Positions 36,501 to 56,330 of a stretch of DNA of 62,000 nt are shown in pieces. Numbering within the stretch: the first letter of the stretch is position 1; every line of letters begins with the position of its first letter. The DNA lies in NCBI GenBank assembly GCA_013265495.1, contig MU058065.1, positions 3,201,003-3,263,002 on the forward strand. Reading direction: 5' to 3'. Under the pieces are notes generated by a model, which did not search any database, was not told the origin of the DNA, and saw only the letters and a program-made list of their open reading frames with translations. Both the position numbers and the translations under genes were made by a program. Source of the stretch: Vicugna vicugna (lineage: Eukaryota).

Positions 36501-39500
36501 GGAAGGAGAAAGAAAAAAAATTTTGTTTTTGAATTTTTCTTTTGAATGTTCTGACAACTTTTCTGTACAAATGCAATCTTGCAAGATTGCATTTGTACAA
36601 GTACTTTGTTTCTACACATGTTGATTAACTGCCATAGGACAGTAAATTAAACACTGGCTCACTAAGCAGAAACATCTTTGCTACTTGATACCCTCTGATA
36701 ACTTACTACACAAAGGAGCTGTTCTATTTTAAACTCTCACTCCACACATTGCACACATTCTTTTATATTTCACATCATAAATTGAACCAGAAGAGTTTTT
36801 CAATGCCTTGATCCTGAACTGGATCAAAGCAGAAAATACTATAAAAACTAAGTGACTAGATCACCTCTAAAAATTTTTTTAAAGAAATAATTTAAAATAT
36901 ATAACTTATATGTGTATCCCTTCCACTTGTGACCAAGAAGTTTTCATTTTTTCCCGCTATGAAAATTGTTTCTATGCTTATTTTAACCATTTAACATAGT
37001 ATGGAGGAAGAAGATGGAATTCAGAGGCAAGTAAAATCCTTTAGCACACCACATTCTCGTCCTCTTCATTCCTGAGGCATTGTATTTCAAAACATCAATC
37101 AGTGCTATCTGCTGAGTATAAGAATGTAAGTATACAGAGAATACAGACTTGTGGTTAACAGGTGGGTAGAGTGTGGGAAGGGATAGACTGGGATTTCAAA
37201 ATTGTAGAATAGATAAACAAGATTACACTGTATAGCACAGGGAAATATACACAAAATGTTATGATAAATCAAAGAGAAAAAAATGTGACAATGAGTGTGT
37301 ATATGTCCATGAATGACTGAAAAATTGTGCTGAACACTGGAATTTGACACAACATTGTAAAATGATTATAAATCAATAAAAAATGTTAAAAAAAAGAATG
37401 TAAGTATAACATTCTTCTGATTTTTAAAATTCTTATTTTAAGAAAACTTGCCTCCCAGAGTTTCTTAGGATGAAGATGGTGCTAAAAGACAACCCATTCC
37501 TCAAATGTGGGTCTGCTTCACACTGTCTTTAAAAAGTATTCCTGTACAGAGATCCGCATTTTTCTTGTTTAAAAGCAAATTCATTATTGGACTTATTCCT
37601 TTTTTTTTTTAATTGAAGTACCATCAGTTACAGTGTGTCCATTTCTGGTGTGCCGCACAATGTCCCAGTCATGCGTATACATACATATATTCATTTTCAT
37701 ATTTTTTCTAATAAAGGTTATTACAAGATATTGAACATAGTTCCCTGTGCTATACAGAAGAAATGTGTTTTTTTTAATGAATTTTTATATATAGTGGCTA
37801 ACATTTGTAAATCTCAAACTCCCAAATTTATCCTCTCCCACCTCCTTAACCCCGGTAACCATAAGATTGTTCACTATGTCTGCGAGTCTGTTCCTGTTTT
37901 GTAGATGAGTTTATAGTGTTGGATCTATTTTTTTGTCTAATGAAGTCAAATAAATTACAGCTAGCATCCAGTTGAAACAAGTCCGGTGTTTTAATATTTC
38001 AGAAAGCTTTTCTTAGAAGCTGAAAGACAAAAGAAGTACAAGTACTTTGTGCCACAAACTGAAAACCTTGGATATAATCCACAATAAAAGAGGCTTAATA
38101 GGGTTTATGCAAGTCCAAGAATCTCATATGAATCACTGGAGTGAATGTTGAAATGCACTCCCTCAAAATTTCCCAGGCTAAAGGAGACTAAAAAGATGTA
38201 ACTAAATACAGTGTATGGACTTCTTTGCTATAAAGGACATCCGTGGGGCAATTGCTGAAATAAGAATAGGGCTTCTGGATTAGATCATAGTACAGCTTCA
38301 CTGTTATTTGTCTGATCTGGATAATTGTACTGTGGTTATATAGGAGAATGTCCTTGGTTTTAGGAAATATATACTGAACTATTTAAGGATAAAGGGAGAC
38401 AATGTTTGCAACTTACTCTTACAGAGTTGAAATAATAATAACAATAATTAATATTAATAATAATAACAATAATGTGTGTGGAGAGAGAGAAAGATAAAGG
38501 AAACACAGTAAAATGTTAACACTTGGGGAATTTGATGCAGGAATATAGGATTTGTGTGTGTGTGTGTAATTTTTTATAATTATTATTTCTGAAGTTATTT
38601 CCAAATAAAAATTTTGTAAGAATTTAAGGGCCCTCCCTGAGACCTATAGAGTCAAAGTTTCTGGGGAATCTGCATTTTAGTAAACCCCCAGGTGATTCTT
38701 AAATATGCTCTAAAGTTTGAAAACCTCTGCTACAAGTAAAATCATCAGTGGAAGAATCAGCACTTTTCTCCAAATTAAGCTATAGACTAATCTCAATCAA
38801 AAAGTAAACCCAGTGAAAATCCCAGCAGGCATTTTTGTAGAAATTGAGAAACTGATTCTAAAATGCATATGGAAATATAAAGAATCTATAATAGTCAAGA
38901 CAACTCTGAAAAAAAGAACAAAGCTTGAGGGCTATCACTGTCTGATTTCATGAATTATTATAAAGCCATAATAATGAAAGCAACATGGTACTGGCATGAA
39001 GTCAGACAAACAGGTCAATGGAACAGAATAGAGAGTCCAGAAATAAACCCACACATATATGGACAACTGATTCTTGACAAAACTACAAAGCCAATAAAAT
39101 ACAGAAAAGATAGCTTTTTTTTCCTTTTAAACAATACAGCTAGAAAAATTAGATTATACATATGCCAAAAAATGAACTTAGACTTTGCACCATATACAAA
39201 AATGAACCCAAAATGGATCATAGATCTATATGTAAAGCCTAGAACTCTAAAATTTGAAAAAAAACATAGAAAATGTTTATGACCTTGGATTAAGCAAAGA
39301 TTTCTTAGTCATAACACCAAAAACACAATTAATAGAAAGAAGATAGACAAGTCGGACTTCATCATTAAAAATTCCTGTTCTTCAAAGACACAAAAGACAA
39401 CCCATAGACTGGAAGAAAAAAAAAATCTACATAAAGCATATGCCTGATAAAGAACTTGGATCCAGAAGAATACCAACTCTCAAAACTCAGTAACAGGAAA

Positions 39501-42500
39501 AGAAGCAACCCAATTAAAAATGGGCAAAAGATTTAAACAGGTATTTCAACAAAGAAAATATACAATTGTCAAACAAGCTCATGAAAAGATGCTCAACATC
39601 ATCAGACATTAGGGAAATGCAAACTAAATCCACAATGAGACACCACTACACACCTAAGATTAAAAGGACTGACAGTATCAAGTGATGGCCAGGATATGGA
39701 GCAACTGAAACTGTCAGACATTGCTGGTAGAACTGTAAAATGGTACAGCCACTTGGGAAGACAGTTTGGCCATTTCTCAAAAAGTTAAACCTGCACCTAC
39801 CATATCGTGATCAGCCATTCCATTCCTACGCTTACCCAAGAATAAAGAAAGTGTATGCTCCTAAGACTTGTAGGTGTTCACAGCAGTATTATTCATAACA
39901 GCTACACCCCAAATACTCATCAACAGTGAATGGACAAACAAATTGCAATATATTCATTTACTAGAATATCACTTTGAAACAAAAAAGCTATGAACAACTT
40001 AATATACACAAAAAGAAACTCAAAATAATTACATTCAGCTAAAGAAGCCAGACAAAAAGAAAGAGTACATATGCTGTGTCCTCATTTATATAAAACACTA
40101 GAAAATGCAAACTAATCTGTATGACAGAAAGTCCATCAGTGGATGCTTAGAGACAGGGGAAGGATGAAGTATAAAAGGGGTATTTTTTTTCCAATTCACA
40201 GTGAACTTATTTTACATAAAAGAAAAAGCTTGCCATTAATGAAAACTTCAGTAGAAAACAGTTCTTCTCCTTTAATTTGGGGCTCAAAAGTAGAAGCTGC
40301 TTATTAGTGAACCCTCAGTAGAAAAAGAATTTTGTAAGAAAATATTCTTTAGGGATGATGGCTTTTTTCACTGCCTTAATTGTGGTGATGGTTTTTCCGG
40401 TATGCATATGTGACAACTTGTCAAACTGTACACTTTACGTATGTGCAGTTTACTGTATGACAGTATCTCAGTAAGGCTGCTTAAATAAGTAAGTAAATAA
40501 ACAGACCCATTCAGTAAAAGGTCATGGTTCCACCATGTGGTCTTCGGTAAGAAACTTACCTCTTGAGCTTCAGTTTTCTTATCCAAAAATAAATAAATAC
40601 ATAAATCGAATAATACCTGCTACAAGGGGTTATAGTTAGAAGACAATCAATAAATGTTGGCTCTCTCTTTTTCAGTTTTCTGCTTTTCAGTTAGCAGGTC
40701 AGTAGCACACAAGCTAATAAGAACTGTTTCCATTTCTTGAATATTAAGATTGGATGATAGGTGACCCAGTGATCCCAATTCCCAGTATTTACCTAAAGGA
40801 AACAAAATCACTATCTCGAAAATGTATTTGTAGCCCCATGTTCATTGCAGCATTATTTACAATAGTCAAGACATGGAAACCACTAGTGTCCATCAACAGA
40901 TGAATGGATAAGGAAAATGTGGTATATACTACACATATAATAGAATATAATTCAGCCATAGAAAAGGAAATCTTGCCATTTGAGACAAGGATGGACCTTG
41001 AGGGCATTATGCTAAGTGAAAAGAGTGAGACAGAGAAGAACAAAAACCACATGATCTCACAAACAAAATCAAAACCAAGGTCACAGATACAAAGACTAGA
41101 CTGGTGGTTGCCAGAGGCAGGGGTGGAGGTGGCAGCAAAATGGGTCAAGTTGTTTAAAAGGTGAAAACCTCCAGTTATAAGATAAATAAGTTCTGGGGAT
41201 GTAATGCACAGCATGGTGACTATAGTAATAATTAACAATATTGTATATTTGAAAGTTGCTAAAAGAGTAAATCTTAAAGATCTCATCACAAGAGGAATAA
41301 AAAATATAACTGTGTGGTGATGAATGTTAACTAAACTTATTCTGGAAATCATTTTCCAACAGACATAAGTCGAATCATTATGTTGTACACCTAAAACTAA
41401 TACAATATTAAAAGATCGGAAGACAGGTACTTAACATTTATCTCAAGGAAACAGGATTTGATTTCATGACTAAATAAGACATTTTGCTATTTGTTAAAAT
41501 ATCCCAAGTTCTAATAGCTTAAACTCATTTCCTGATGGTGGAAAGAAAAATACATTCCAAGATTTTGATACAGAGATCTTAAAACACATAGTTAATAAAA
41601 CTTCTCTTGTCACCACTGAAAGGAGATTTTATATCAACTCTTTAAAATAATTTAAATGAAAGAAATAAGCATTTATCCTAACTTTCCTGTTAGGATTAAA
41701 TTGTAGGGTAGTCAAATGGCCCTAGATGATGGAGAAAAATTATTCCTTGCATAAATTCTAGCTAATATGTGAAGAATGAATAATAGAATATGAAAACTAC
41801 CAGTTCGTAGTTCCAAATAAAACAGCTAACTTAGGCAAGGATTATTAAGGGAGATTTAAAGCACTAGGTGAAAAGTCAACGGTCCATGAGGAACTTTTAT
41901 TTGTGGCTAGTTACCACCTCACACGTTACTTCCTACCTGATCACTCTTAGACATTAATAATGGGATGACCAGACATCACATGCACCCTGACATAACACAA
42001 CGTGAGCACAGAGCCGCACCTAGGAAGAGGACTTGCAAAAAGGTTTCACCTAAATCTAACCAAGCCTTTAGCTCCAACTTCCATTTTAAAAGAAATACAG
42101 GGAATTGAGAAAAAAATTAACCCTACAAAATAGCAATTAAAGAAATCCTGAGGGTGAGACAGCTTGCAGACAGAAAATCTGCTTTCTTCGATGCTTCACT
42201 GACAAGAAAACAAATGGGGAACACTGTTCTAAATTAAAAGATACAGGCTGCTTCTCTCACTCCCTCCTCTTTGGAGATGGCCACAGGCACTCTATGGAGT
42301 GTGTATCTACTTTTACTTTAACCTGAGCACCCAAACCCCACACTTAAAAATCCTTCACTTAAAAAAAGAAACTTAAAAACTAAATACAACCGAACAGCTT
42401 TTTTTGGATCCTAGTTCAAATAAATCATCCATAAATATGTATTTTTGGCTCACTTTAGGAAAGCTGAATATTAACTTGGTTTAGATGATTTTAAGGAGGG

Positions 42501-45500
42501 GGAAGATTATAGCTCAGTGGTAGAGTGCGTGCTTAGCATGCACAAGGTCCTGAGTTCAATTCCCAGTACCTCCATTAAAAATAAATAAATAAATAAACCT
42601 AATTTCCTCCCTCCAAAAAAGAAAGAAAATTAAAAAAAAATGTTTTTAAGTAGATGATTTTAAGCCATTACTGTAAACTGTGCTACATGTGACTATGTTA
42701 TAATTACGTAAAAAGTACTTAATTTTAAAAAACACATCCTAAAGTATTTAGAATTAAAACATAATGTGATTTACTTTAAAATATTTTTGCAAAATAGATA
42801 AAACTAATATAGCAGCTTGTTAAAATAATTATAAATCCAAGTAATGAGTCTACAGGAGTGCATACCCTTCTGTCTACTGTTCTGTATACTTCAAATTTTT
42901 CCTAAGAAAATTTCCAAACCATATGATAATACAAAATAACATGCTCCTAGTAACACAAATGTCAAACGCATGCAATAAGAACATTTAAATTAATCGACTG
43001 TCAAGCCACTGTAGTTTGATTCAAATTAGGAGCGGTGGGTCACATCCAAGTCACTAGTCCACTCACATGTGACACATGTGGCTCCAACACCCGCAGTGAA
43101 CCAGGTGACCTTGAGCAATTTACTTCATCTCCAAGCTCTATCTTTGGTAAATGAGTACAGGGGTAGCCCCTACCTCATAGGGCCGCTGTGGAGATTTACG
43201 TTCTTGAGTTAATACAAGTACGGACACGTGGGATGGACAACTTCCCTTCTGGGTGACAGAGTAAAGACACTCCACCTGTGCTTATCATGAGCCTCCCATC
43301 GGCCAGGGAAGAAGAAATTTTCCTCTATGCTCTAGGTTCTTCTGATTGGTATAATAATTAAATTGCCATGAGACAGATTCACAGGAGAAAAATCAAACAA
43401 AATTTTAACTATATGTATGCATGGAGGAGACCCAGCAAAACTGAATAATTCACAAAAATGGCAGAAACACTCACCTTAAATACCAACCTCAGCTAAAGAC
43501 AAAAGAGGAGGTTGAGGGTGGGGAGAGTCAGTTATGGAAGGTTATGGGAGAAAGCACAGTAAACAAGGGATAAGGTTTTGGGCAGATTTAAGTCTCTGCC
43601 TTCTCCATTGATAAGTTTCTAGAGATTTGGTCATCCTCCTCTTCCCAATACAGCAAGAGAGACACCCTTACAGAGATTTCCCTTATAAATGGAAGTGTTT
43701 CTTACAAAAGGATAAATCCTACTTGGTTTTCAGAGTTTTTCCCATGTCTGCTGCTGTTTAGAAAGTAACCAGTTTAAAATAATTAATATACCAAAGAGAC
43801 ATGTTTTGAGATGGTAAATTCTGCTCCCCTACAGATGGCAATACGGATCTTTCTGGAATAACCACAGATATCCGCAACTATAGGCAATGACAAGGGGCCA
43901 TGAAAAAAAATGAGAGTGGGCTGTCAGAGATGTGCTGACTGATTAGCAAGAAAGTCAGTCTCCAAGTTTAAGACATTAAATAGGACAGCATAGTGGTTAA
44001 AGCAGGAACTCTGGATAGAATGTCTGGGTTTGCACCCAGCTTCTCCAGCTCCTACGAACTGTGACCTTGAATCATTCACTTCGCCTCTTAGCTCCCTCAT
44101 CTGCACAGTGAGTGCAGAAATGAACAGTCCTTTACCTCGTAGAGTTGTTGGGAAGATTACATGGTTAATAGTGTTTGGTGCTTAGAATAGTACCTGGCAC
44201 ACACTAAGCCCTTGATAAGTGTAGCTTATCTTGATGGTACTTTGGCTTAGAGCAAAACAAAGCGTAATGCTAGCAACATGTCTGACAGTTTGGCTTAAGA
44301 GGACTTGAGTTCATGCTTTGAAAGTCCTTTTTCAGTAAATGCTAGCTGCACTGTAGTCACCTGGAGAATTTGTTTAAACAAACAAACAAAAAATCCCGAT
44401 GTGCCAGCTTCATTCTGAAACAAATGAATTCGAAATTCTAGGGCTAGAGCCTGGACACCCAAGTTTTCAGAAACTCCTCCAGTGATTTTAATGTGTGGCC
44501 AGGGTTGCGAACCACTGATCCAGGCATTCAGAATGTAAAATCGTTTCAAAAGTGTAAACCTCTACAGTGCAACAAATGTATTAGTACTGTTATTACTGTG
44601 GCCCCAACAGTGTACGACCCATGATCTTATAGCATATAGACGACTTTAGCCTTCCTAAGAGTTTAAGTTCCCAATAATTCCCGGCCTCTTCTACCACATC
44701 CCTTCCTCCTGACCCGCCACCCCGGCCCCCTTTACTGCAAAAGCTGAACAAACATCCAGAGAAAACGAGCGCAGGTAAGCCGCCACCCAGCCACCCCCAC
44801 CCCCGCCCCACCAGTGGCTGGCTCCTGTGCGTTTCTACAGGGGCTTAACTTGGGATCCGGCTAGAACGCCCTCCTGGGTCGAATTATTTACAGAGGCCAC
44901 CCAACCCAATGTGTGGTACAGTCTTTGCAGCAAGGTACCCTTTTGCATCCCGAAAATTTTAAACACGGGTATTTGTCTTGAGGATGCGGAGAAGGAAGGA
45001 ATCAGGTTTTAAACACGTGGGCATTGTTCTTCCACTTATGAATCCACAATGCAAGAAACGAGTTTATCCACTCTTGACGGGCTTAAGGGCAACTTGCGAC
45101 AGCTCCATTGGGTCGTGGTTACCTTTGGCTGTGTGCATTTGTCAGAACTCGAGCTGTATACTTAGAATCTGTGGCTTTCGTTGTGGGTAAGGTACACCTC
45201 AATTTTTAAAAACAGCACAGGGAAAAATAAAGTTGGCAAACAGCCGTTTGACACGAGGTGCACGTGAAAAGGTGAATCAAAAGAAGGGAGTCCCAAGTTA
45301 GCTACAAACGCCCTCTGTAACCTGCCTACTCTGGCTTACAAGAGAAGTAGGGTTGGAATTTCTAAGTACGTCCCTTGGACCGTTAGGACTGTCCGGGAAC
45401 GAGGAGACTGAGCCCCACGCATCGCGGAGCTTCGCCTAGATCTTGAGCGGCCGAGAGTCCTTACCGAGCAGCAGGAAGGACAGGCCCCACTGCAGCACCG

Positions 45501-45558
45501 CCGCGGTCTGCAGCCGCCGCGCCAGTGGAATGTTGAGCGGCGCAAACTCGACCTTCAT
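18412..45558 (-). CDS. MOGAT1: Monoacylglycerol O-acyltransferase 1 (DGAT2 family), full 6-exon CDS span, 335 aa
   Basis: Exons 45558-45465, 33155-32977, 32613-32409, 27979-27805, 27229-27030 and 18566-18412 join through GT-AG junctions into an open 1008-nt frame, [18 protein letters not shown]...[18 protein letters not shown]2-family motifs YFP, HPHG, GGxx[10 protein letters not shown] and VPVFSFGE are present. Adjacency to FARSB fits known synteny. Confidence 0.97.
18613..18797 (+). repeat. 185-bp direct repeat, copy 2 (3' end of MOGAT1 intron 5)
   Basis: Identical by eye to 17087-17271; offset 1526 bp. Confidence 0.93.
19573..19807 (+). mobile_element. Short L1 3'-end insertion with TSD
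   Basis: 12-bp TSD AAATGTATTAGG (19561-19572 / 19808-19819); L1 3'UTR with A-rich tail. Confidence 0.85.
20193..20210 (-). promoter_or_regulatory. Candidate CTCF site
   Basis: Minus strand GACCAGCAGAGGGCGCAA closely matches the CTCF core CCASYAGRKGGCRS. Confidence 0.6.
21503..21537 (+). repeat. (CA)n microsatellite
   Basis: About 17 uninterrupted CA units in MOGAT1 intron 5. Confidence 0.95.
24638..24760 (+). mobile_element. tRNA-Ala-derived SINE (Vic-1-like)
   Basis: A box TAGCTCAGTGG, B box GGTTCAATCC, AT-rich tail, degenerate TSD. Confidence 0.88.
27030..27229 (-). CDS. MOGAT1: MOGAT1 exon 5 (200 nt)
   Basis: Acceptor [36 protein letters not shown]...[10 protein letters not shown]; donor G|GTATGT. 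Confidence 0.96.
27805..27979 (-). CDS. MOGAT1: MOGAT1 exon 4 (175 nt)
   Basis: Acceptor TTTTATTCACTAAG|GG; translated by hand as [59 protein letters not shown]; donor GG|GTAAGT. This frame is not in the ORF track. Confidence 0.95.
29176..29533 (+). mobile_element. MLT1A-like MaLR LTR
   Basis: Typical CCTCCAAAATTCATATATTGAAATCCTAACCCCCAA...CTGTGAGAAATAAATT sequence. Confidence 0.8.
31139..31302 (+). mobile_element. tRNA-Ala-derived SINE (Vic-1-like) with (ATTA)n expansion
   Basis: Same head; (ATTA)n at ~31222-31254; degenerate TSD AAGAGAT(T)GGA. Confidence 0.85.
32409..32613 (-). CDS. MOGAT1: MOGAT1 exon 3 (205 nt), contains HPHG motif
   Basis: Acceptor [40 protein letters not shown]...FREYLMST; donor G|GTAAGT. 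Confidence 0.96.
32977..33155 (-). CDS. MOGAT1: MOGAT1 exon 2 (179 nt)
   Basis: Acceptor TTCCTTACAG|CG; (A)[15 protein letters not shown]...[11 protein letters not shown]; donor |GTGAGT. Confidence 0.95.
33197..33348 (+). mobile_element. tRNA-Ala-derived SINE (Vic-1-like) next to the MOGAT1 exon 2 acceptor
   Basis: GTATAGCGCAGTGGCAGAGCACATGCTTAGCATGCACCAGGTCCTGGATTCAATCCCCAGTACCTCC; a head-like GGGGAGGGTA also occurs at 33197. Confidence 0.85.
35925..36520 (+). mobile_element. L1 ORF2 3' fragment
   Basis: Canonical AAAATGGGCAGAAGACCTAAACA...GAAATGCAAATCAAAACTACAA...ATGGAATACTACTCAGCCATAAAAAAGAAT. Confidence 0.88.
36564..36599. repeat. Perfect 36-bp palindrome
   Basis: TGTACAAATGCAATCTTG|CAAGATTGCATTTGTACA; 18-bp arms, no spacer. 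Confidence 0.95.
37135..37393 (+). mobile_element. Young L1 3'-end insertion with TSD
   Basis: 15-bp TSD AAGAATGTAAGTATA (37120-37134 / 37394-37408); 3'UTR nearly identical to the reverse complement of 16052-16290. Confidence 0.9.
37600..37920 (-). mobile_element. L1 3'-end fragment
   Basis: Poly-T followed by L1 3'UTR, similar to the other copies. Confidence 0.8.
38770..40470 (+). mobile_element. Old L1M ORF2/3'UTR fragment
   Basis: Degenerate ORF2 peptide [33 protein letters not shown]; frameshifted. Confidence 0.85.
40775..41410 (+). mobile_element. L1MA-type 3' fragment
   Basis: CCCATGTTCATTGCAGCATTATTTACAATAG...TCATTATGTTGTACACCTAAAACTAATACAAT. Confidence 0.82.
42496..42650 (+). mobile_element. 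tRNA-Ala-derived SINE (Vic-1-like)
   Basis: Same head and A-rich tail; perfect 14-bp TSD TAGATGATTTTAAG (42482-42495 / 42651-42664). Confidence 0.9.
43300..43833 (-). mobile_element. MER34-like ERV1 solo LTR in MOGAT1 intron 1
   Basis: Minus strand begins TGTAGGGGAGCAGAATTTACCATCTCAAAACATGTCTCTTTGG, typical of MER34/MER39-group LTR heads (from memory). Confidence 0.65.
43980..44230 (+). mobile_element. MIR SINE
   Basis: GCATAGTGGTTAA...CTGTGACCTTG...CCTCATCTG...CTTAGAATAGTACCTGGCACA core. Many other MIR/L2 remnants in the window are not listed. Confidence 0.75.
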
Positions 45559-45980
45559 GGCCCAGCCGAGGCGAGGACTGCGCCGAGCGCGGCCGCCGGG
45601 AACCTCGCTGCTCCGCGGCTCCTGCCGGGTGTGTGCCCTCCTGGCTCTGCGCTGGGCACTTGGCTGCGGCCAAGAAGTGCGTGAGGCCTGAACTAGGTCT
45701 TGAGGCGGAGGCGCACCGGGGCTGAGGCCGGAGGCTGCCAATCACTCGCGCCCAGCCCTGGAGCAGCTGCTGCGCCCGGGACGCATTGGCTGGCCCGCCC
45801 CGGCACCAGCGACAGCGCGCTGCGTTGGGTAAAAGGGACAGCGAAAGAAGTCAGCTGGCAGCCTGCCCGACCCGGCAGAGCTGGCTTGGCTACCTGGCAG
45901 AATACCTGGGATCCCTACCGGGATCTGACCATTGTTCAGCTGATCGATTTCTGCGCGCACGACTTCAGCAACCGTCGTTA
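45380..45980 (-). promoter_or_regulatory. MOGAT1 CpG island / promoter
   Basis: High GC and CpG across exon 1; CCAAT boxes at ~45738 (+) and ~45785 (-); GC box CCCGCCCC at ~45794. Confidence 0.8.
45465..45558 (-). CDS. MOGAT1: MOGAT1 coding exon 1 (94 nt)
   Basis: ATG at 45558; [31 protein letters not shown]; donor G|GTAAGG. Confidence 0.96.
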
Positions 45981-46974
45981 AACCCACCTCTTCCTCTGAA
46001 AGTTTCTCCAGCTAGGGAAAGGGTTAGTTCCCGCTTCTCCCACCAGCTGGAGAAAGGGGCAGGAGTTAGCTTCTCTGGAGCTTGCACCCTACTATTTGTG
46101 GGTCTGTGTCCCCCACACCACCCCCAAACTCTGGGGGCCTCCTCACTTTCGTGTCTCAGATTCCCACGTGAATTCTGGAAATCTTTCACTTACTCATTCA
46201 TTCAATGGACATTGATAGAATACCTACCAAGTGCCAGGAACCATTCTGAGCACTGGGGATACACCCAGTGACCAAGTCAGTCATCCATTCTGCTCTCACA
46301 GAGTACAAATTATGAGGAGAGACAAACATAAGAAAAATAACCACACATTGGGTGTGTAATTGCAAAATGAAACCCTACTATGAATGAAAGGGAAGGTTCT
46401 AGGATGTAAACTGGAGGGTCAGTCTCTGAAGAAGTGACTTTGACTTGAATTATAATGGTGAATCTAGTCCAAGCAAAGGGGAGCACACGTGCAAAGGTCC
46501 TATGGCTGAAACTCAAAGAAGACCAATATAGTGGGAGCTCAGGGAACAAGAAGGAGATTGGAATGAGATGAGCCAAAAATGGTGGCAAAGGGCCTGATCC
46601 TTGCAGGCTGTGTTTAGGGTTCAAGTCTTTACCCTAAGATTTGCCACTGAAGGGTTTCAATTATAATGGATTAAATAAAAAGATGGATTCTAAACTGTGC
46701 CTCATCCTGCGAGCACTCACTAAATGTTCTTTATAAAGCTTACTGTACAGTTGGACAACTCCAAGTAGCAGGTAGCTGTCAAGTCATTGCTACAGGGAAT
46801 TTGGAACAGGGCAAAACAACAGTTGAATACTCACCCCCTACCCCCACCATGCCCTTTTCTCCTTAACATTTTAATAGAAAGTTGGATTAAAAACAACAAC
46901 TGGGTCATTCAGGGGACTTGTTTGTGACTTTTAGTATTCAAAACGTGCTGTTTTTTTCCTAATTGAGAAATTAC

Positions 46975-47155
46975 TTTTTTTTCTGCTGCATTTTCTTTAT
47001 TTCAAGCCACAGATCTACTTGGAGGATCAGGCAGCAAGTGGCTTATAAATGAAATCAGAGTCTATGAATAGTGTCATCACATGAAGAGACAGAATCACTG
47101 GATTCTCTCCTTAGGTAAAGAGCTCCCATCTTCAGAATCCATGCATTGGTATTAT
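46975..47155 (-). terminator. GK retrocopy 3'UTR with poly(A) signal and A-tail remnant
   Basis: AATAAA at 47001-46996 (minus), followed 13 nt later by A8 (46982-46975). The UTR resembles my recollection of the parental GK 3'UTR. Confidence 0.8.
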
Positions 47156-48817
47156 TTATGGCACTCCTGAGAGGTACCTTGCTCCGATTAACATTACCAT
47201 GCTACTCACTATAAAAAAGCCCAAGGGTAGACTACTGAAGATACTAGGATCACCACTTTCTGGCGACTGCGTTGTAACCCAACCCATTGACTTCATCACA
47301 GCTTTTTTCCACGTAGAATAACGAATTTCACTTTCCTTAGCGTTGATCTGAGGTTCAAACCGCTCCATCGTGACAGCTGACAAATCCTCAGGTTCGAGGC
47401 TCCAAACGCCAACCCCTTCTGCAGCCCCTGCTGCCATGGCAGCTCCCAGGGCAGTTGTTTCGGGCATCGAGGGCTTCACTACTGGGATGTACAGAATGTC
47501 TGCTTGTAGCTGCATAAGAATTTTGTTGTTGGTCATTCCTCCGTCTACCTGCAAATGGCTGAGTGGAATTCCACAGTCACGGTTCATAGCGTCCAAAATC
47601 TCTCGGGTTTGGAAACAAACAGCTTCTAATGCAGCAAAAGCAATATGGCATTTATTGGTGAATTGAGTGAGCCCACAGATGATCCCTCTTGCACTGGGGT
47701 CCCAATAAGGTGCATACAGCCCTGAAAATGCTGGGACGAAATAGCAGTCGTAGGAAGTGCCTGCTTCTTTAGCAAGTTTTTCAATTTCCTCTGAGGTCTT
47801 TATAATTCCAAGATTGTCTCTTAGCCAGCGAATAACAGCACCAGCTATAGCTACCGAACCTTCTAATGCATAATATACTGGTTTGTCTCTGCCGAGCTTG
47901 TAAGCCACTGTGGTCAGAAGGCCATGTTCAGAAAATACACATTTGTGGCCTGTATTACATAGTAGGAAACAGCCTGTTCCATACGTGTTTTTGGCTTGTC
48001 CATCCTGGAAGCACATCTGTCCCACCAGCGCAGCAGATTGATCCCCCAAACACCCAGATATTGGCACACCTTCCAAGGTCCCCGCTTTCATTAGACCATA
48101 GATCTCAGAAGAACTCCTGACATTGGGAAGAATTTTCATTGGAACTTTAAAAAATTCACAGAGCTGTTTATCCCATTCCAAAGAATGAATGTTGAAAAGC
48201 ATCGTCCTACTTGCATTTGTTACATCTGTACAATGGACACCTCCTGTGGCTCCTCCTGTCAAGCTCCAAATAAGCCATGAATCAATGGTCCCAAAAAGAG
48301 CTCTATCTTCTTCAACTGCCTTTTGAATTTTTTTCACGTTGTCAAGGAGCCAACGAAGTTTCACTGCACTGAAGTAAGTGCTAAGTGGAAGGCCTGTCTT
48401 GGACTTGACAAAGTTGTTATTTACTGGAATGCTTTTACTAAGATTCTCAACGGTAGACTGGGTTCTTAGATCAAGCCACACCACAGCATTGTAGAGAGGC
48501 TCTCCAGTTAACTTGTCCCAGACCACAGTGGTTTCCCTTTGGTTACTGACGCCAATAGCTTTTATGTTGGAAATATCAATGTTGAGCCGTCCCAATTTCT
48601 CACACGTTTTCTCTACACACTCATAGACAGAATGCAGGATTTCCTTAGGGTCTTGTTCCACCCATCCTTCTTTTGGAAATTGTTGTTTTATTTCCACTTG
48701 ATGATGACTAAGTAGTTCGGCAGTCTTTGAATTGAAAACCAAAAAGCGTGTCGAGCTGGTGCCCTGGTCCACTGCTCCTACTAGCGGCCCCAAAAGCGCT
48801 TTCTTCGTGGCTGCCAT
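47156..48817 (-). CDS. GK: Glycerol kinase, intronless retrocopy of X-linked GK with intact ORF (553 aa from canonical ATG; 595 aa from upstream ATG at 48943)
   Basis: Single uninterrupted 1662-nt [28 protein letters not shown]...[14 protein letters not shown] kinase motifs DQGTSS, NQRETT, GDQ, TYGTG and DGG are intact. No introns, whereas parental GK is multi-exon. The symbol names the parent; the copy itself is GK2-like or unnamed. Confidence 0.95.
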
Positions 48818-48990
48818 GAAACTAGCTTCGGTCGGCGGGCAGGCGATCGCGTTCCGTTTCCCGGGTGACGGCGGCGGGCGGGGGAGGGGCGGACGGCGAG
48901 TCGGGAGGGTCAGACGGCGCGCAGCCGTAGAACGCTTTATCATTCCTCACCTCTTCCTTCTCCTCCCTCCTCTCTTTTAGATTTCTTCCT
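48730..48990 (-). promoter_or_regulatory. CpG-rich 5' end / candidate promoter of the GK retrocopy
   Basis: Dense CpG and GC-box-like CCGCCCC / CCCGCCC runs at 48830-48935, with a purine-rich tract immediately upstream. Confidence 0.55.
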
Positions 48991-49953
48991 TGAACCTTCC
49001 CCAGTGCTACTGGGGATACTGTGAGTGCACACCACGTCAGACTGTGCAGAGCCCTTCACCAGCCTGAGCTTATCCTAGATCAATCCTGCAAAATGATCAT
49101 TAGCTCATCTGGCAGTTAGTGAAGGGCCAGGCTCAAAGTCACACAGCTGGAAGAGCGGAAAAGATTCAAATATACTTCTGTCTAAAGCCTGGAGAGGAGA
49201 GTCATCCCCTCTTCAATTGACTCAAACATGGAACAAATATTTACGGAGTGCCTGCTTTGCACCAGGCATTGCCCTCGGTGCTAACACAAAGGTGAGTTAA
49301 GACATGGTCTCTCAGCCTTTGAGAATTCACACGCGTTCATTCATTGACTATTTAGGGAAAAGCTTCTACCTGCTAAGCACTAGGTGGGGAGTAGGGGTGG
49401 GCTGAATAAGATAGGGTGAATAAGAAAGGTCTCTGTCGTCATGGGACTCACAGTCTAGCGAGGGAAACAGAAAGCAATCATATAGGTATATAACGAAATG
49501 AGTGCTCGTGCCCTGAAAGAAACATAGGTTCCAGTGATAGAGAATGAGCCCCTATTTACAACAGATTGGAGGTAACAAGAGTGGAAGTAGGGAGACCCTA
49601 AGGAGGCTATTGGAGGGTGGAAGTAGAGGATGGTGGCTTGGTCTACAGGGGAGAATACAGATGGATTTAACGTATGCTTTGGAGATGTAAATTGCAGGAC
49701 CAATTGATTATCTGGATTCACAATCTATGGTACATAAGAAGAGCAGGACACCCAGAACTCCTAATCACTTGGAGTTCAATCTACTGAATCATGCTCTTGT
49801 CTCTTTCCTGGAGCCCTCAGCAGGTAGAAAAGAACTGTCATTCCCCATCACAGACCATTTAAGCAAAGCAGGGACCCAGGAGGGTCCATCACCATTTTAA
49901 TTAGCAATTAAATCATTCACTCATTTGTTTGACAGTCAACACGTGTTCATTTG

Positions 49954-50479
49954 TGTATTATATTGGGTCCCAGGTTATTGGAATTAAATTGTTACTGGGT
50001 AGGGGTTATTCATTCTGTGAAGGAAAAACCGGGCTGGTCTAACAAGATAACTCACAAGTCTAGGAATGTGAAGGAGAGGCTGGGCTGGTCTAACAAGATA
50101 ACTCACAAATCTAAGTATTGGAATACTGATCTGAGTTCTGCTAGACTAATTTGTAAATCTAGGTTAATTAGTGTTGGTTTGCTGTTCATGTTTTTTGCTA
50201 GTCAGCTGGGTTTTCAAAGATACATATCTGGCTTTGGAATGTTGGTTTGCTGCCTCCCCGCCTCCACTTTTGTGATGATAATGCTGATAAAGCTGTTCCA
50301 TGCCTATTGGCCTAATACCCCAAGCTTGTACTTTACCCTATAAAACCTCATGCGCACGTCTTGGAGGTGCTCAGAGCTTCGGAGCAGAAGCCCCTCTGAG
50401 CCCGCCGGCGTAATACATCTGAGTACTACAACCCTCCGAGTGGTGCTTGTTTCTTGACTGGCCTGTCGTTTCCGTAACA
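49954..50479 (+). mobile_element. ERV1-type solo LTR inserted in an L2-like tail
   Basis: TG...GTAACA termini; imperfect TSD TTTG/TTTC; TATAAAA ~50339; AATACA ~50412; internal 51-bp tandem duplication. R/U5 resembles the LTR at 6169-6740. The left boundary could instead be 49990. Confidence 0.78.
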
Positions 50480-55609: not shown

Positions 55610-56330
55610 TTCTATGCCGGCGGCCTCAGACCCCGCCTACTCACAGTCCCACCCCTCCCGGGAGGATTCTCCACCTCGATGCCCCGCCCCCTTTTACGTA
55701 CCCACCCCACCCCCACCCCGCCCACCTGTCTTGGCGCCCTCCGTCCGTCGTGCGTTTGAGGCGTGAGGGCCTTCGCGGTCTGTTCATTCTACTGCCCATC
55801 AAATCCTAGCCCATTCTACCCAATTCTGTCTCCTTTCTCAGCCTGTAGTACATTCACCCAAAGAAGTTAGATTTTCCGAGCTTAGTGGTGGCCACTTACT
55901 TGCTTTCAGATGAAAAGCGAGAGGAGAAGCTTTGGGGAGCAGACTGGCGATATTCAAGACAGCCCTCACGGACGGGGCCGGGTCCTACACACCTCGGTCG
56001 CCGAGCCCGGGCCAGATCCCCGCGCAAGCGCAGTGGGCCCGACTCGCCATGCCGACTGTCAGCGTGAAGCGTGATCTGCTCTTCCGAGCCCTGGGCCGGA
56101 CCTACAGTGAGTGCGGGCCGCGTAGTTCTGCGCCTCTCCTCGGAGGCTGGGACCCCCTCCAAAAGGTTTCGTGGCAACGTTCATGCTGCCCAGCTGGTTT
56201 CGGCCTTGGGCGCTCGAGGTCTAGATAGGGCTGACGGCCTCCGCGGCCAGGCCAGGGTGATGTAGCCTCTGGGAACCGGTGTCGCCGCGGGTGCCATTGC
56301 ATCACCTGCAGGTGCTGGGCTCGCAGTGTC
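55610..56330 (+). promoter_or_regulatory. FARSB CpG island / promoter
   Basis: CpG-rich; GC boxes (CCCCGCCCC ~55682, CCCCGCCC ~55716); NRF1-like GCGCAAGCGC at ~56022, just upstream of the ATG. Confidence 0.8.
56049..56106 (+). CDS. FARSB: Phenylalanyl-tRNA synthetase beta subunit, coding exon 1 (58 nt)
   Basis: GCCATGC start; MPTVSVKRDLLFRALGRTY; donor A|GTGAGT; lies in a CpG island. Confidence 0.96.

Follow-up and report, generated by a model that had tools for sequence, protein, structure and literature searches.

An old glycerol kinase retrogene beside MOGAT1 in the vicuña, probably shared among artiodactyls and kept for the male germ line

The 62,000-nucleotide (nt) stretch of Vicugna vicugna DNA analysed here (contig MU058065.1, positions 3,201,003 to 3,263,002; called the window) carries an intronless copy of GK, the glycerol kinase gene on the X chromosome, between FARSB and MOGAT1 (Table 1). 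Its open reading frame (ORF) encodes 553 residues plus a stop codon in 1662 nt, contains no internal stop or frameshift, matches both Pfam FGGY_N and FGGY_C, and yields a protein that aligns without gaps to 553-residue GK proteins. The copy represents a single GK isoform, without the 6-residue and 28-residue alternative exons and with the 29-residue tail exon. A first-pass annotation of this DNA had described an intact, intronless GK frame on the strand of MOGAT1, with a poly(A) site near the MOGAT1 CpG island and start codon, an eroded A-tail and no clear target-site duplication, and that description held. The remnant of the tail lies 1417 nt from the MOGAT1 ATG, and 1.1 kb of CpG-poor DNA (observed-to-expected CpG ratio 0.26) separates the retrocopy from the island. 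The search for a target-site duplication found none around the retrocopy, the best match (8 of 9 nt) falling in A/G-rich sequence, as is expected for an old insertion.

Table 1. Features of the GK retrocopy and its neighbours (positions in the window)
Feature	Position	Strand	Basis or remark
GK retrogene coding sequence	47156..48817	-	553 residues, intronless; ORF, Pfam and alignment
Retroposed 5´ untranslated region from the parent's CpG island	48818..48934	-	Composition and homology
Short 3´ untranslated region, 172 nt, AATAAA at 47001-46996	46984..47155	-	Sequence
A8 remnant of the poly(A) tail	46975..46982	-	Sequence
Asp17 codon, catalytic residue kept, Val in GK2	48767..48769	-	Alignment
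Residues 129-140	48398..48433	-	Clade-specific changes at 129, 132 and 139 (139 in 4 of 5 members), beside Lys140
Lys494 codon, clade-diagnostic	47336..47338	-	Of the first 121 proteins, found in the four clade members alone; also the 7NIE chain
C-terminal tail with hydrophobic helix	47156..47253	-	19-residue hydropathy peak of 2.12 from residue 526
Flank outside the retrocopy aligning with deer P0002 residues 3-29	48958..49038	-	Score 40; 10 of 27 columns
MOGAT1 coding exon 1	45465..45558	-	Exon model
MOGAT1 exons 2-6	33155-32977, 32613-32409, 27979-27805, 27229-27030, 18566-18412	-	DAGAT matches
MOGAT1 promoter CpG island	45380..45860	.	Composition: 69% GC, observed/expected 0.87
FARSB coding exon 1; gene divergent from the retrocopy and 7.1 kb away	56049..56106	+	Weak Pfam match, E 0.005

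The retrocopy brought its own 5´ end with it. The 118-nt 5´ untranslated region (UTR) is 74% GC and contains 21 CpG and two GC boxes, with an observed-to-expected CpG ratio of 1.43, compared with 0.23 in the flank; upstream translations of X-type GK remain homologous as far as about 48931-48934 and no further. This region is likely to be the promoter, and its retention of CpG suggests that the promoter is unmethylated in the germ line. A scan of the retrocopy for promoter motifs found no TATA box and no full cAMP-response element. About 1.06 kb upstream, an element resembling a long terminal repeat (LTR; 49990-50479) has the ends TGTTAC and GTAACA and a 51-nt internal duplication, and no matching flanks were seen around it. 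Just beyond the parent-derived sequence is an in-frame ATG (48943-48941, minus strand) from which a 595-residue protein could be read. Within the ORF, two in-frame stretches are bounded by GT and AG (47940-47860, 81 nt, and 47253-47167, 87 nt, minus strand). They coincide with gaps in the models from pig and pilot whale and are probably annotation artefacts; if truly spliced, they would yield a soluble, tail-less form.

The protein searches gave the best 120 clusters each, and among the best 120 of 1366 matches in the first, the proteins closest to that of the window are those of deer and goat (95% identical). In a first tree (44 of 121 proteins), the window protein groups with those of pilot whale, deer and goat (support 99/96); this clade adjoins whale and cattle X-type GK, though not firmly (85/75), and is distant from the GK2 clade, which includes dromedary, hippo and whale (100/100). 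A second tree (25 of 149 proteins) places the pig sequence of PDB entry 7NIE in the same clade (100/97). Here the camelid branches first and the pig next, matching the accepted species tree, with weaker inner nodes (88/81 and 87/32). Clade members are 92-96% identical to the window protein, and T4, S129, V132, V225, H291 and K494 are found in the window, pilot whale, deer and goat proteins and in none of four artiodactyl X-type rows. All of V132, V225, H291 and K494 occur in 5 of the 149 proteins, which are the five clade members, and no protein has three; the diagnostic residues had been picked from four of the five members before 7NIE was seen. Orthology to GK2 was rejected, as the window protein falls outside that clade and has Asp17, not Val17. 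Among the 149, the clade took in no protein from horse, carnivore, bat or primate, which is weak evidence for its restriction to artiodactyls with the best 120 clusters taken per search.

Because the clade stands apart from both X-type GK and GK2, these data fit one retroposition in the cetartiodactyl ancestor, that is, one GK insertion between FARSB and MOGAT1 before camelids, pigs, whales and ruminants diverged. The first-pass annotation had proposed a retroposition independent of GK2 and a possible sharing with other artiodactyls, and the tree bears out both. The deer protein P0002 adds information about the site, since it carries a 76-residue N-terminal extension whose residues 27-76 align to the frame of the window 5´ UTR (36 of 52) and whose first part aligns to the flank outside the retrocopy. 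The score of the flank alignment was reached by 1 of 2000 shuffles. In a scan of the whole window, a block made up of two overlapping scan windows reached 42 by chance, and because of this block the flank match rests on its position; it suggests that the deer copy sits at the same insertion site. The extension has no Met at the position of the upstream in-frame ATG noted above. An origin of the extension as a spliced FARSB-antisense exon was considered and dropped, as it aligns to the immediate flank.

Other 553-residue GK-like proteins with Asp17 and the tail branch separately, in bats, New World monkeys, sloth, pika, opossum and rodents, which suggests repeated, independent retroposition of one isoform. 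Q46, A352 and D357 are specific to the window protein within its clade and recur in GK-like proteins of the rodents Fukomys, Octodon and Thomomys (among the 121 proteins, D357 is in 6 and Q46 in 5); convergence is possible. A metagenome scan with the goat protein found no orthologous mammalian DNA, the 18 loci in 162 candidate stretches all being 44-49% identical.

Conservation follows the reading frame. Against deer, the coding region shows 95% identity, a figure that drops to 69% for the translated 5´ UTR and to 37% for the flank. In a neutral simulation of the ORF under our own assumptions (two-thirds transitions and 0.07 indels per substitution), 1 of 1000 frames stayed open at 0.05 substitutions per site and 0 of 1000 at 0.1 or more. 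A protein difference of 4-5% corresponds to only about 0.02 substitutions per site. If the neutral distance between camelids and ruminants is about 0.3, as we assume, the ratio of nonsynonymous to synonymous substitution rates (dN/dS) would be near 0.1, an estimate only. Because identity within the clade is 92-96%, purifying selection on the retrocopy is implied, by a protein-level proxy and not by nucleotide dN/dS. Clade-wide conservation and the simulation thus agree with the earlier proposal of an old insertion whose frame is under selection. No clade member has a longer branch than the pilot whale protein, P0113, which lacks the tail, has a deletion of two residues and replaces Gly19 of the phosphate loop by Ser; the toothed-whale copy may be relaxed.

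The link to sperm comes from the pig. The best PDB match of the window protein is 7NIE chain A. That entry is a homology model of pig GK, made after sperm proteomics and cross-linking, from a study of pig sperm mitochondria in which GK-like proteins were modelled on arrays of VDAC (Leung et al., 2021; PMC8609336). In the available parts of that paper, GK is abundant in boar sperm and is cross-linked to VDAC2 and, via Lys140, to VDAC3. We found that the 7NIE sequence (P0125) carries V132, V225, H291 and K494, is identical to the window protein at 466 of 487 residues, has 24 differences from pig X-type GK in 487 sites, and falls between the camelid and the whale-ruminant group in the second tree. 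Joining it to pig X-type GK was rejected (approximately unbiased test, p 0.00065). It is probably the orthologue of the window gene, judging by these residues and the tree. The chain differs in lacking the tail and window residues 294-320. The 27-residue gap corresponds to the 81-nt GT-AG-bounded stretch of the window ORF, and the pig X-type isoform P0139 skips the equivalent exon with the junction shifted by one residue, which is consistent with a gene model built over a copy that has no introns. Three of the ten changes shared across the clade lie close to Lys140, at most 11 residues away (resampling p 0.003-0.008), a hint only, with the span picked after the changes were seen. The peptide that carries Lys140 starts with Thr in 7NIE, compared with Ser in pig X-type GK.

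In the window protein, all 11 catalytic or ligand positions checked are kept (D17, T20, R24, R94, E95, Y148, D259, Q260, T281, G427 and N431), where the positions other than Asp17 are taken over from bacterial GK. The C-terminal 29-residue tail is present and hydrophobic. Asp17 is named as catalytic in PMC5566117, which also describes, in the text available, the matching 29 residues of mouse Gykl1 as necessary and sufficient for mitochondrial targeting. The odds that the window protein is still an active kinase seem to us about even. Mohri and Masaki reportedly found glycerokinase in bull sperm in 1967, and Mohri et al. in goat sperm in 1970, going by titles in reference lists. A gene of the window type could account for these activities. 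Bull sperm are also described as metabolising labelled glycerol (PMC12795705, available in part).

RNA evidence was taken as the share of a queried stretch's words found per run, for the 24 runs listed. Three runs labelled reproductive system, from one study, contain 0.36-0.43 of the words, and four runs of unspecified tissue under another organism label contain 0.23-0.34. The coding region makes up 0.46 of the queried stretch, and MOGAT1 exon 1 plus UTR 0.09. The parent transcript is expected to give 0.02-0.13 at 90-96% identity (about 94% gives 0.06, up to 0.115). Because the parent and MOGAT1 exon 1 give less, shares of 0.23-0.43 need sequence nearly identical to the retrocopy, and the reproductive-system runs are suggestive of its transcription. 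Seven further rows with a share of 0.08 were dropped as evidence, as the parent transcript or MOGAT1 exon 1 plus UTR suffices to explain them.

MOGAT1, on the strand of the retrocopy, was modelled from an ATG at 45558 as six exons with AG/GT ends (94+179+205+175+200+155 = 1008 nt); exons 2-6 give DAGAT matches, and the best named matches are MOGAT1. Dromedary is the best match for exon 6, and exons 4-6 are 93-95% identical to it. Compared with pig, whale and cattle, plus dromedary where covered, the frame and the HPHG motif are intact, and unusual residues are Gly25, Pro for Leu before the GGA motif and Gly for Glu in exon 5. Intron 1 holds an AT-rich stretch (38900-41400) whose ORFs look like decayed L1 and gave no Pfam match. 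None of 140 frames scanned (the GK ORF, five on the plus strand, and all 134 of at least 52 residues on the minus strand below 46 kb) matched an acyl-CoA synthetase family, so ACSL3 is not in the window. In cattle, single-nucleotide polymorphisms (SNPs) of ACSL3 begin 218 kb (about 0.2 Mb) past the last MOGAT1 SNP. Two cattle papers place LOC538702 between FARSB and MOGAT1 on chromosome 2, by name in a gene list only, and its SNP is 6.5 kb from the first MOGAT1 SNP.

We consider it likely that the window contains a functional retrogene of X-linked GK, which entered the interval between FARSB and MOGAT1 once, before camelids, pigs, whales and ruminants separated, and has been retained for the male germ line. 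Retroposition copied a spliced GK mRNA that included the tail exon, and the frame and catalytic residues were conserved. The copy could then be transcribed in spermatocytes or spermatids from its inherited CpG-rich 5´ end while X-linked GK is silenced. Judging by the pig member and the mouse paralogues, the tail would tether the protein to the outer membrane of the mitochondrion; there the protein may sit on VDAC2/3 lattices and help shape the sperm mitochondrial sheath. Loss of mouse Gk2 and Gykl1, which are testis-specific and X-derived, disorders that sheath (available text of PMC6473107 and PMC5566117). With about even odds, the protein would be an active kinase, unlike GK2, that receives ATP through VDAC and passes glycerol-3-phosphate to the mitochondrial dehydrogenase. 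A stronger version, in which artiodactyl sperm GK arrays on VDAC are built largely from this retrogene and the retrogene is a working kinase, we put forward only tentatively, as a possibility that we would sooner doubt than expect.

Several observations count against these proposals. The reproductive-system runs come from one study with unspecified sex and tissue and could reflect genomic DNA, and the four other runs have no specified tissue. The tree gives the pilot whale model a long branch, and the tail is missing from it. Cattle LOC538702 is taken to be a GK gene; the papers give just its position. Gykl1 and Gk2 were inactive as kinases in vitro (Pan et al., 1999, as cited in the available parts of PMC6473107 and PMC5566117), added glycerol is said to be consumed slowly by boar sperm, by way of glyceraldehyde (Jones et al., as cited in an excerpt of PMC11617388), and Leung et al. 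themselves call the GK assignment probable (PMC8609336, in the text available).

The four runs of unspecified tissue would suit a broadly expressed somatic back-up for GK, driven by the CpG island at its 5´ end, with no special role in sperm and no link to MOGAT1. A CpG-rich 5´ UTR without TATA box or full CRE and a protein still about 95% identical to X-type GK are also what such a gene might show. We nevertheless regard it as unlikely, since the sperm array model used the pig member's sequence, described GK retrogenes are testis-specific, and the lineage is the faster one, with a terminal branch of 0.03 compared with 0.004-0.006 in whale and cattle X-type GK. A processed pseudogene, young or dead, with a frame left open by chance, could draw on the relaxed look of the pilot whale model and on RNA shares that are word-level and not read-level in this species. 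It would have to explain derived residues common to four artiodactyl lineages, an eroded tail without duplication and a neutral survival of 0 in 1000 at 0.1 substitutions per site, and is highly improbable.

The first-pass annotation had favoured another idea, a glycerolipid cluster built by retroposition, in which the retrocopy would contribute to triglyceride synthesis in liver, fat or hump and have enhancers or a read-through transcript in common with MOGAT1 and ACSL3. The common strand, the 1.4-kb spacing from MOGAT1, an arrangement that seems retained in cattle and the intact catalytic residues speak for it. The only functional evidence that we found leads to sperm mitochondria, through the work that used the pig member (PDB 7NIE), and both a CpG-rich 5´ end and an AATAAA signal belong to the retrocopy itself, followed by CpG-poor DNA before the MOGAT1 island. 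ACSL3 is distant, to go by the cattle SNPs, somatic tissue is already served by X-linked GK, and our literature search gave no paper joining MOGAT1, FARSB and glycerol kinase. GK makes glycerol-3-phosphate and MOGAT1 starts from monoacylglycerol, two alternative routes to diacylglycerol; GK feeds the glycerol-phosphate route that MOGAT1 bypasses, so that the enzymes take alternative and not consecutive steps. The cluster is thus not supported, and we hold it to be very unlikely rather than refuted. If the retrogene was kept for the male germ line, as we favour, its adjacency to MOGAT1 is incidental, and a fat-metabolism story for the retrocopy is removed as unsupported.

What the retrogene adds is, above all, a new assignment for 7NIE, whose pig sequence would be neither X-type GK nor GK2 but a third, artiodactyl-specific gene, and with it another case of repeated copying of GK from the X to an autosome for sperm. 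The retained catalytic residues make it testable whether livestock sperm have an active glycerol kinase of their own, with a bearing on fertility markers and semen freezing. If the arrays are indeed built largely from the retrogene and it is a working kinase, one conserved sperm structure would be assembled from independently retroposed genes in different mammalian orders; the sperm of bull, goat, boar and camelids, unlike those of mouse, could phosphorylate glycerol on the surface of their mitochondria; the glycerokinase activity reported in 1967-1970 would have its gene; and species differences in the response to glycerol as a cryoprotectant would have a testable cause.

GK retrogenes are already known as a kind, and the locus already has automatic annotations. 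Goat K5549_016283 and the fallow deer 'glycerol kinase-like' protein, both 95% identical to the window protein and in its clade, are such annotations only. Our literature search, which covered few subscription or older papers, found no description of the gene as an artiodactyl retrogene and no tie to 7NIE. In the parts of PMC8609336 available, Leung et al. use the label GK/GK-like and relate it to the mouse sperm isoforms, not to an artiodactyl retrogene, and a 2025 review of GK2 (PMC12467085, available in part) places the boar data under GK2.

Among the known systems, GK2, the eutherian testis retrogene, is likewise retroposed from X-linked GK, 553 residues long and tail-anchored, but it forms a separate clade, is 86-88% identical to the window protein and has Val17 for Asp17. 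Camelids have both GK2 (dromedary P0074) and a retrogene of the window type. In artiodactyl GK2, His24 replaces Arg24 as well, in four of the four shown (P0074, P0068, P0069 and P0110); together with Val17 this is a further step from catalysis, in the lineage that gained the retrogene. Mouse Gykl1 offers a parallel as another GK retrogene restricted to one lineage and present in addition to Gk2; its protein is anchored by the tail to sperm mitochondria and is essential for fertility (PMC5566117, in the sections available); it differs as a rodent gene, probably of separate origin, that is reported to be inactive in vitro. The parent, X-linked GK, is 94-95% identical to the window protein, with the catalytic set complete. 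X-linked GK is known to bind VDAC. It differs from the retrocopy in being intron-containing (21 exons, Xp21), somatic and alternatively spliced (for background on GK, see the available parts of PMC5737092), whereas the retrocopy fixes one isoform.

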